A stretch of DNA of 64,000 nucleotides from Chlamydiales bacterium (lineage in GTDB: Bacteria > Chlamydiota > Chlamydiia > Chlamydiales > JAAKFR01): the NCBI GenBank assembly GCA_024233495.1, contig JACKPM010000002.1:224541-288540 (forward strand). Reading direction: 5' to 3'. This document shows, piece after piece, positions 12,038 through 13,000 of this stretch. A program made the position numbers and the translations under genes. Positions within the stretch are counted from its first letter, which is position 1. Each line of letters opens with the position of its first letter. Below the pieces are notes generated by a model. The model had not been told where the DNA came from. It made no database searches and was given only the letters and a program-made list of their open reading frames with translations.

Positions 12038-12261
12038 AATGGCATAAGAAATTAGCTGATGTTTGGATACAAGTCAATTGAAGTTTAAGGTACTTTGCTA
12101 TATACAACTCGGTATGAGCTCTTCAACATCCATATCATCTTCTTTATCTCCTTCATCTCCTTCTCCTTTTTCAAACAATTCAGGGAATGTACGTGTGAGT
12201 ATAGCTGCGCAGCAAGCTTTGGCTAGAGGAGCGCCTCCTCCTCCAGGTTTAGGTGCGCTGC

Positions 12262-13000
12262 CTTCAGGTATGATAGCTCTCCAGATATGCATCCAGGTAT
12301 GCCTCCAGGCATGCTCTCCAGATATGCATCCAGGTATGCCTCCAGGTATGCTCTCCAGACATGCATCCAGGTATGCCTCCATGCTTTCTCCCAGGTATGC
12401 CTCCAGGTATGCTCTCTAGGTATGCCTCCAGGTATGCCTTCAGGTATGCCTCCAGGCATGCCTCTCTAGGGTATGCTCCCCAGGTATGCCTCTCTAGGTA
12501 TGCTCTCCAGGTATGCTCTAGTATGCCTCTCCAGGTATGTGCCTCTAGGTATGCCTCCAGGCTCTCCAGGTATAGGATCCAGATATGCATCCAGGTATGC
12601 CTCTAGGTATGTGCTCTAGTATGCCTAGGTATGCCTCCAGGTGCATGCCCCTAGTATGCTCAGGCATGCCTCAGGGCATGCCCAGGCATGCCTCCAGTAT
12701 GTATCCAGACATGCATCCAGGCCATCCAGGCATGCTCAGGCATGCCTCCAGGCATGATGCCTGCATGCCTACAGGTATGCCTACAGGCGCCTGGGTATGC
12801 TCACAGGTATGCTTCACAGGTATGCCTGCACAGGCATGCCTACAGGCATGCCTTCCAGCATGATGCTCCAGGCATGCCTCCCAAGCATGATGCCTCCAAG
12901 CATGATGCCCCAGGTATGCCCCAAGTATGATGCCCAAGTATGATGTGCCCAGGTATGCCTCTGGCATGATGCCTCCAGGTGATGATGCCCAGGTGTATCG
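12262..13000. repeat. degenerate short tandem repeat tract (12/13-nt units, consensus CCAGGTATGCCT), coding status unclear
   Basis: Dozens of head-to-tail variants occur, including CCAGGTATGCCT, CCAGGCATGCCT, CCAGATATGCAT and CCAGGTATGCTCT. At 12282..12392 they form three 37-nt higher-order units. Overlapping ORFs appear in five of six frames because the unit lacks stop codons. Confidence 0.85.

Follow-up and report, generated by a model that had tools for sequence, protein, structure and literature searches.

A degenerate 12-nucleotide tandem array between the RNase Z and rhomboid genes of an environmental member of Chlamydiae, tentatively read as the remnant of a Pro-Gly-Met-Pro coding repeat

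What is the origin of a long and strongly repetitive DNA tract that has a gene-like beginning and no gene-like continuation? The question is raised by a 64-kb stretch of contig JACKPM010000002.1, which comes from an environmental member of Chlamydiae and is referred to here, at its full length, as the window. In the gap between an RNase Z gene and a rhomboid protease gene, the plus strand carries at 12279-12994 a tandem array in which the unit CCAGGYATGCCT is repeated imperfectly some 59 times, as delimited by Tandem Repeats Finder (TRF), motif search and wraparound alignment. The array is genuine and lies far above chance. No frame allows it to be translated as a single protein, and it does not constitute an intact gene. 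As a tentative explanation, the tract is regarded here as a non-functional minisatellite, the decayed remnant of a Pro-Gly-Met-Pro (PGMP) coding repeat from a lineage-specific, possibly secreted gene that would have started at ATG 12114.

The initial annotation of this DNA had described a degenerate 12/13-nt repeat tract, and the description stands. TRF reports an array at 12279-12881 with a period of 12, 50.3 copies, 70% matches, 15% indels and the consensus CTCCAGGTATGC; a period of 37 is also called for the same interval, and variant periods of 13-15 nt and 39-42 nt extend the array to 12994. Wraparound alignment to the consensus resolves the ~59 units, 8 to 17 nt long with 12 nt the commonest length; 597 bases match, 80 are substituted, and the indels remove 27 bases and add 39. 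By searching the window for the 12-mer CCAGGTATGCCT with at most one mismatch, 18 sites were found, all 18 of them within the tract, in comparison with 0.10 in shuffles. The tract also differs in composition, with a G+C content of 55% against ~47% for the window. The motif counts given earlier proved correct: there are 13 sites of CCTCC (GGAGG when read from the minus strand) and 23 of AGGTATG, and the 10-bp palindrome AGGCATGCCT is present in 7 copies.

The array has an internal order as well. Three higher-order units of 37 nt (12+12+13 nt), already noticed in the first reading of the DNA, follow each other in register at 12281-12391 on the plus strand, and the 13-nt unit ATGCTCTCCAGAY is present in register in all three copies. 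At the other end, a 3' sub-domain (12754-12994, plus strand) is built of ~15-nt units that carry ATGATG, that is, an extra Met codon, together with CCAAG and ACAGG variants. Each class of variant is confined to a sub-region: CTCTC to 12277-12562, CTAG to 12416-12651, ATGATG to 12754-12982, ACAGG to 12771-12842 and CCAAG to 12881-12934. Such spatial clustering is expected where an array grows via local duplication, and not from random read errors. The idea that the CTAGG variants might stem from deamination following cytosine methylation at CCAGG sites was considered and dropped. Within the unit, ATGC is the best-conserved part and the spacer is variable in length, most of the indels mapping to the pyrimidine segment, where CCTCC becomes CTCTCC, CCTCTCC or CTC. 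The longest exact repeat internal to the tract is 34 nt, and no 55-mer is repeated.

These features bear on a first alternative, namely that the true locus is an in-frame (PGMP)n gene, whose indels arose from unpolished long-read errors or from a mis-walk of the repeat graph. The indel density, at ~9% of bases, is indeed like raw long-read error, and exact-product look-ups of nine open reading frames (ORFs) in 12114-14046 and of one distant ORF of the window gave no match. Independent short-read (Logan) contigs from runs SRR12358676 and SRR12358675 stop short at 12153 and 14201, and 12154-14200 is contained in no second assembly. However, over flanks of 2,125 nt (9967-12091) and 3,566 nt (14201-17766) the same contigs agree with the window at every base, which indicates high base quality in this neighbourhood. 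None of six flanking genes is truncated in comparison with its homologues, and a 33-nt coding repeat elsewhere in the window, at 46426-46597, is in frame with 0 indels. Inside the tract, the indel-bearing 13-nt unit recurs in register three times, the variants are clustered, and, given the 34-nt limit on exact repeats and the lack of repeated 55-mers, an assembler with k >= 35 crosses the tract unambiguously. The proposal that sequencing indels have disguised an ordinary repeat protein is thus disfavoured; the tract is probably not an assembly artefact, and an in-frame gene hidden by errors is very unlikely indeed.

One of the short-read contigs (L001) nevertheless ends in an informative way. 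After 2,125 identical nt it departs from the window at 12092, 22 nt upstream of ATG 12114, and its final 62 nt (window 12092-12153) hold 10 mismatches before it terminates in a (TCT)n run. The abrupt boundary looks like that of a recombination event, and the diverged end belongs either to another allele or to a paralogous copy of the 5' end.

Taking the sequence as real, the next matter is whether it is read. The tract had been called nearly stop-free in all frames, which overstates the case: each of the six frames holds 6-8 stops, the longest open stretch is 112 codons, and stop trinucleotides total 40 against 57 +/- 6 in shuffles. The low stop content is a property of the 12-mer unit itself; 28% of random 12-mers with the tract's base composition, when tandemly repeated, leave all six frames open. 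As had been stated, no ORF spans the tract and all those listed are partial; at >=40 aa, ORFs overlap it in all six frames, one more than the five first reported. Gene callers will output these spurious overlapping ORFs, which are not to be reported as proteins. Along the 63 ATGs of the tract the register switches 31 times, and 29 of the 49 ATGC-to-ATGC distances are not multiples of 3. A 3-periodic Markov coding score, for which 27 of the window's long ORFs served as the training set, is above zero in the RNase Z and rhomboid genes and below zero for every frame of both strands from 12040 to 14420; the best value in the gap, about -2 bits per 120 nt, lies over the N-terminal ORF that starts at 12114.

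An intact tandem-repeat protein gene is therefore rejected on ORF span, on register and on coding potential. A phase-variable gene, which had been offered as one possibility, finds no support either: the array is too degenerate for a contingency locus, with ~70% unit match, 15% indels and no exact internal repeat longer than 34 nt, and its frame has already been broken repeatedly. A CRISPR (clustered regularly interspaced short palindromic repeats) array was also considered and set aside, as the period is 12 nt and unique spacers are lacking. When all ORFs of the gap were compared with Pfam at E <= 1, no match was obtained except a non-significant, low-complexity one to Eap1 (E = 0.32). Two suggestive peptides downstream of the tract, a WH2-like motif (LLFLDGIKKV) and an HNH-like remnant (CEYC...H), were dropped, since neither has Pfam support at this threshold.

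Although the tract is not a gene now, the evidence leans weakly toward a coding origin, and this evidence begins at its 5' edge. The initial annotation had noted that an ORF from ATG 12114 runs into the tract; this residual ORF occupies 12114-12419 on the plus strand and encodes 101 aa. Its product begins MSSSTSISSSLSPSSPSPFSNNSGNVRVSIAAQQALARGAPPPPGLGALPSGM..., with a Ser/Pro-rich N-terminus (MSSSTSISSSLSPSSPSPF...), and after 50 open codons it reaches PSGM, which is the first unit of the array, in the PGMP frame, the very motif that the consensus unit encodes. The reading goes on as APPPPGLGALPSGM and stops at a CTAG variant, so that the ORF enters the tract in the PGMP frame and then drifts through all three frames. 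A start codon and an ORF kept at the 5' end and running in frame into the repeat are what is expected of a pseudogene. Contig L001 retains both the ATG start and the Ser-rich N-terminus (MSSSTPISSSSSS), differing at 10 of 62 positions.

The pattern of changes among the units points the same way. Substitutions at unit position 6 (21 of 21) and at position 12 (5 of 5) are T-to-C and synonymous in the PGMP frame; the commonest substitutions of the array are in this manner synonymous in the Pro-Gly-Met frame, and the ATG codon, for which no synonymous alternative exists, hardly ever changes. An additional ATG triplet, which keeps the frame, distinguishes the 3' units. Furthermore, 42 unrelated loci in metagenomes of the Joint Genome Institute (JGI) and 2 viral loci contain the two-unit 22-mer CCAGGYATGCCTCCAGGYATGC, read in frame as PGMPPGM, and its presence in the metagenome loci implies that PGMPPGM is a natural coding motif.

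On this basis, the following course of events is proposed. A lineage-specific gene with a low-complexity Pro/Gly/Met repeat would have lost its frame. Its product may have been secreted, as the secreted proteins of chlamydiae typically have a Ser-rich N-terminus and, after it, a proline-rich tract. The array would then have evolved as a minisatellite, in which slipped-strand mispairing and unequal exchange duplicated or deleted units and blocks, some of these blocks, such as the 37-nt unit, already bearing frameshifts. Read as frameshifted blocks that were later duplicated, the 37-nt units suggest that the array kept growing without coding constraint. Meanwhile, small indels would have built up in the slippage-prone CCTCC/CTCTCC segment, and the tract in its present state would be without function, contributing at most the truncated 101-aa product of 12114-12419. 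If so, the locus is an example of a coding-type repeat, or of a look-alike, that is still evolving as a minisatellite after frame loss.

Several observations weigh against a decayed gene. Third codon positions hold 32 of the 80 substitutions in comparison with 27 expected, a difference that is not significant, and at unit positions 3 and 12, which are third in the two Pro codons, only 5 substitutions apiece are seen, a count that does not exceed those at first and second codon positions. Where a unit departs from 12 nt, a length difference of 3 nt (n=4) is not enriched over differences of 1 nt (n=9), 2 nt (n=10) or 4 nt (n=5). The T-to-C changes fit a plain transition bias, or G.U pairing in a plus-strand RNA, as well. 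The ratio of ~45 indel events to 80 substitutions is high for an ordinary bacterial pseudogene, and the coding potential of the 12114 ORF is about zero or negative.

Homology searches weigh on the same side, as no intact homologue of the ORF or of the repeat was found in any searched collection, and pseudogene status, for which a functional reference homologue is needed, can only be inferred. An idealised, frame-corrected protein of the tract, compared with a collection of 5.8 billion proteins, retrieved only unrelated low-complexity PGMP proteins, and the actual mixed-frame ORFs of the tract, used as bait for ORFs miscalled from similar tracts, matched nothing in the same collection; nor did the N-terminus or any of the non-tract ORFs of the gap. 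In an exhaustive HMMER pass over 1.84 billion representatives, the 53-aa N-terminus gave one weak match, to six stretches of a repetitive protein of 1427 aa, which is probably spurious. At the DNA level, the 22-mer is absent from 82 loci, 80 of which are related chlamydial loci, and the gap as a whole matched nothing in plasmid and phage collections. None of the relatives examined has conserved the tract, and no short-period array of >=200 nt was detected in 1.27 Mb of syntenic DNA of relatives; the tract is exceptional in size for this group. In the literature on chlamydial proline-rich tandem-repeat effectors nothing specific was found. Of the earlier suggestion of a decaying repeat-protein gene, then, what holds is that it is the best single reading, by virtue of the entry in the PGMP frame and the synonymous substitutions; proof is lacking, in view of the missing homologue and of the absence of any preference for third positions or 3-nt indels.

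The same observations are the strength of a second alternative, in which the tract was never coding: a 12-mer would have been amplified by slippage in the junk DNA of a hotspot, and the N-terminal ORF and the PGMP reading would be coincidental. Coding potential that is negative throughout, including the 50 N-terminal codons, the want of a homologue in the searched collections and the lack of enrichment of either 3-nt indels or third-position changes are all what such an origin predicts, and the high share of random 12-mers that are stop-free in all six frames removes any surprise from the open stretches. The gap accumulates elements resembling miniature inverted-repeat transposable elements (MITEs) as well, with which the array shares this variable intergenic hotspot. 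Variable-number tandem repeats (VNTRs) in intergenic DNA are, moreover, known in other obligate intracellular bacteria, such as Wolbachia and Ehrlichia ruminantium (PMC3287509). On the other hand, coincidence would have to explain why the array begins inside an ATG-initiated ORF and in the Pro-Gly frame of that ORF, why the start is kept in the second allele (L001), why the unit encodes a motif common in real proteins, why the period is a multiple of 3, and why the ATG triplets added to the 3' units preserve the frame. Overall, a minisatellite that never coded accounts for the greater part of the facts and comes close in likelihood to the decayed coding repeat, even if, judged by itself, a wholly coincidental PGMP reading is somewhat doubtful.

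A third group of alternatives gives the tract a function as nucleic acid, whether as a self-complementary plus-strand RNA, as a minus-strand GGAGG/GGA titration array or as a set of protein-bound GGYATGCC palindromes. The plus strand folds at -348 kcal/mol, in comparison with -284 +/- 8 for shuffles (z = -8.4); GGUAUGCC is self-complementary through G.U pairs, and the T/C changes keep this pairing. The conservation of ATGC beside a spacer of variable length, and the 13 GGAGG motifs of the minus strand, would also suit a functional element. However, the plus-strand score is an automatic by-product of repeating a near-palindrome, an intact GGYATGCC is present in just 23 of the ~59 units, and the frequent variant CCAGATATGCAT moves the centre of the palindrome instead of compensating. 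The minus-strand RNA is no more structured than shuffles (z = +0.3), an asymmetry between strands that follows from the G.U self-complementarity of GGUAUGCC. Rfam gives no match, whether at the gathering score or with the threshold relaxed to E <= 1; the bounds of the tract show no surplus of promoter- or terminator-like sites; and no conservation was seen among relatives. An element of any of these kinds is highly unlikely.

The minus-strand motifs deserve separate mention, as a dense Shine-Dalgarno-like array had been put forward as a speculation. The 13 copies are real; such a role is not supported, because no start lies at a usable distance, the fold is at the level of shuffles and Rfam is silent. 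GGAGG is simply the complement of the CCT-CCA (Pro-Pro) codon junction, and the nearest ATG stands one base after it, too close for initiation. The array was also compared with CsrB/RsmZ-type sponge RNAs, to which many closely spaced GGA-containing motifs (GGAGG) on a putative minus-strand transcript presumably give it a likeness. These RNAs are 100-400 nt long, whereas the tract measures ~720 nt, and the comparison was rejected, as the motifs are not in hairpin loops, the minus-strand z is no better than stated above, Rfam offers no match and no bounded transcription unit is present. A transcribed and functional repeat RNA, be it a plus-strand transcript from near 12114 with extensive GGYAUGCC:GGYAUGCC helices or a minus-strand array, upstream of RNase Z, of at least ~13 GGAGG/GGA motifs that would titrate ribosomes or an RNA-binding protein, is hardly to be expected, and even when the functional nucleic-acid readings are taken together their likelihood stays very low. 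If it were real, Chlamydiae would possess a bacterial repeat RNA regulator of a new class; nothing that was found requires it.

Is the tract, then, an element of a new kind? The initial annotation knew of none like it, which is too strong a statement, as a minisatellite or a dead repeat gene is of a known kind, though this one is unusually long for its period. Structurally, the tract is a bacterial minisatellite or VNTR, with head-to-tail units in the ~10-100 bp range outside intact genes. What sets it apart is the combination of ~59 copies at a 12-nt period, the incoherence of frame and the position in a variable hotspot beside MITE-like elements. It resembles the Wolbachia VNTR-105 and VNTR-141 and the Ehrlichia ruminantium repeats in lying head-to-tail in non-coding DNA of an intracellular bacterium, within variable regions, and shares with these VNTRs palindromic or hairpin-forming units and growth by slipped-strand mispairing (PMC3287509). 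Those arrays have mean periods of 58.5-80.9 bp in Wolbachia wMel, wRi and wPip, and they average ~2.7-2.8 copies, with a maximum of 11.8 in the part of the table considered and units that are 98-99% identical (PMC3287509). In contrast to the VNTRs so described, the tract has a 12-nt period, ~59 copies, units that match at ~70% and many indels. If its copy number varies, it could be used as a VNTR for strain typing; the one hint of variation between strains is the allele in L001, with its sharp divergence from 12092 onward.

On the coding side, proteins with (PGMP)n exist, and their unit is identical to that of the tract at the codon level. However, these repeats number from ~2 to >=15 units in the printed context and lie in frame inside ORFs, unlike a tract that changes register 31 times, and outside the repeat the proteins are unrelated to it. 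The Ser-rich N-terminus followed by PPPPGL...PGMPPGMP resembles profilin- or SH3-binding proline-rich tracts, as in formin homology 1 (FH1)-like or TARP-like secreted effectors of intracellular bacteria, and chlamydiae are a group with type III secreted effectors. Unlike in such effectors, there is no downstream actin-binding or other domain (Pfam, all gap ORFs), the frame is lost and no homologue was recovered. Mycobacterial PGRS and MPTR repeats, which are polymorphic, were at first described as repetitive DNA and only later seen to be coding, a history which suggests that such arrays are often coding in origin.

The surroundings of the tract help to place it. The ORF-poor gap in which it lies spans 2,394 nt (12038-14431) between the RNase Z gene, of metallo-beta-lactamase fold (11129-12037, minus strand, divergent from the 12114 ORF), and the rhomboid protease gene (14432-15592, minus strand), and nowhere else does the window go so far without a credible gene. 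The best matches of the RNase Z-like gene, at 69-84% identity, are almost all in chlamydial metagenome-assembled genomes, and these chlamydial genomes keep the gene order Lon, cytidylyltransferase, rhomboid, gap, RNase Z, XerC-like recombinase, ABC-F ATPase. A survey of the slot between rhomboid and RNase Z in 80 loci (L003-L082; for example L011, L012, L015 and L019, the last at 9413-9800) showed that in most relatives the two genes are separated by a few tens to a few hundred bases, and that the size of the slot varies between 0.25 and 2.2 kb in closer relatives. Its usual content there is one or two genes, on the RNase Z strand, for small proteins (~110-160 aa) that are hydrophobic in their central part, and other accessory ORFs are sometimes present. 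The small proteins share the tail ...HP(I/V)A...(I/L)D(C/T)C...(K/R)H.(I/L)(D/N)LE... and, judged by sequence, are predicted to be bilobed and Inc-like, resembling inclusion-membrane proteins. No remnant of this Inc-like gene was found in the window. A likeness between the N-terminus of the Inc-like protein of L019, MSSTSISSSLSSS (MSSTSISSSL), and that of the 12114 ORF was rejected as evidence of kinship, as it exists at the peptide level only, with different Ser codons and on the opposite strand. The slot is a variable hotspot across Chlamydiae, and the tract marks it as prone to recombination or insertion, with accessory genes, often Inc-like, that differ among lineages.

The MITE-like elements of the gap belong to a dispersed family that also recalls repetitive extragenic palindromic (REP) sequences. 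The element is palindromic, ~158 nt long, with termini TATAGTCAAATCGGTTGAAAATTTT and its inverse, and its copies are 87-89% identical and all intergenic. One copy lies inside the gap at 13588-13741 (plus strand), and a diverged copy of the same or a related element occupies 14183-14369, within which short-read contig L002 ends. Full copies are found elsewhere in the window at 33144-33300, 53677-53833 and 55148-55304, and other diverged or partial ones at 11005-11122 and 39134-39170. The element folds as a single long hairpin (-67 kcal/mol, z = -7.8). None of 124 loci from other genomes contains it, and Rfam gives no match. An ORF at 13485-13667 with a good Shine-Dalgarno sequence was discarded, as it overlaps the MITE-like copy. 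The XerC-like ORF at 10054-11052 (minus strand) has its predicted GTG start inside the 118-nt repeat at 11005-11122, which is 80% identical to 14183-14300, and its true start is in consequence probably further downstream.

Three further loci of the window were recorded. The second-largest stretch without a confidently scored gene, 48154-49492 (1.3 kb), contains only a 170-aa ORF with no Pfam match. At 45910-47247 (minus strand), a 445-aa ORF with no Pfam match has a Pro-rich N-terminus and about five in-frame 11-aa repeats of 33-nt period and 0 indels, LRPPEEEGQYE, an acidic Tyr motif that recalls the EPIYA/TARP-type tyrosine-phosphorylation repeats of secreted effectors and makes this ORF a candidate effector. 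Lastly, five consecutive paralogous ORFs of 150-164 aa at 25197-27547 (minus strand), with 23-33% mutual identity and no Pfam match, each begin with an N-terminal lipoprotein-like signal (L-x-G-C).

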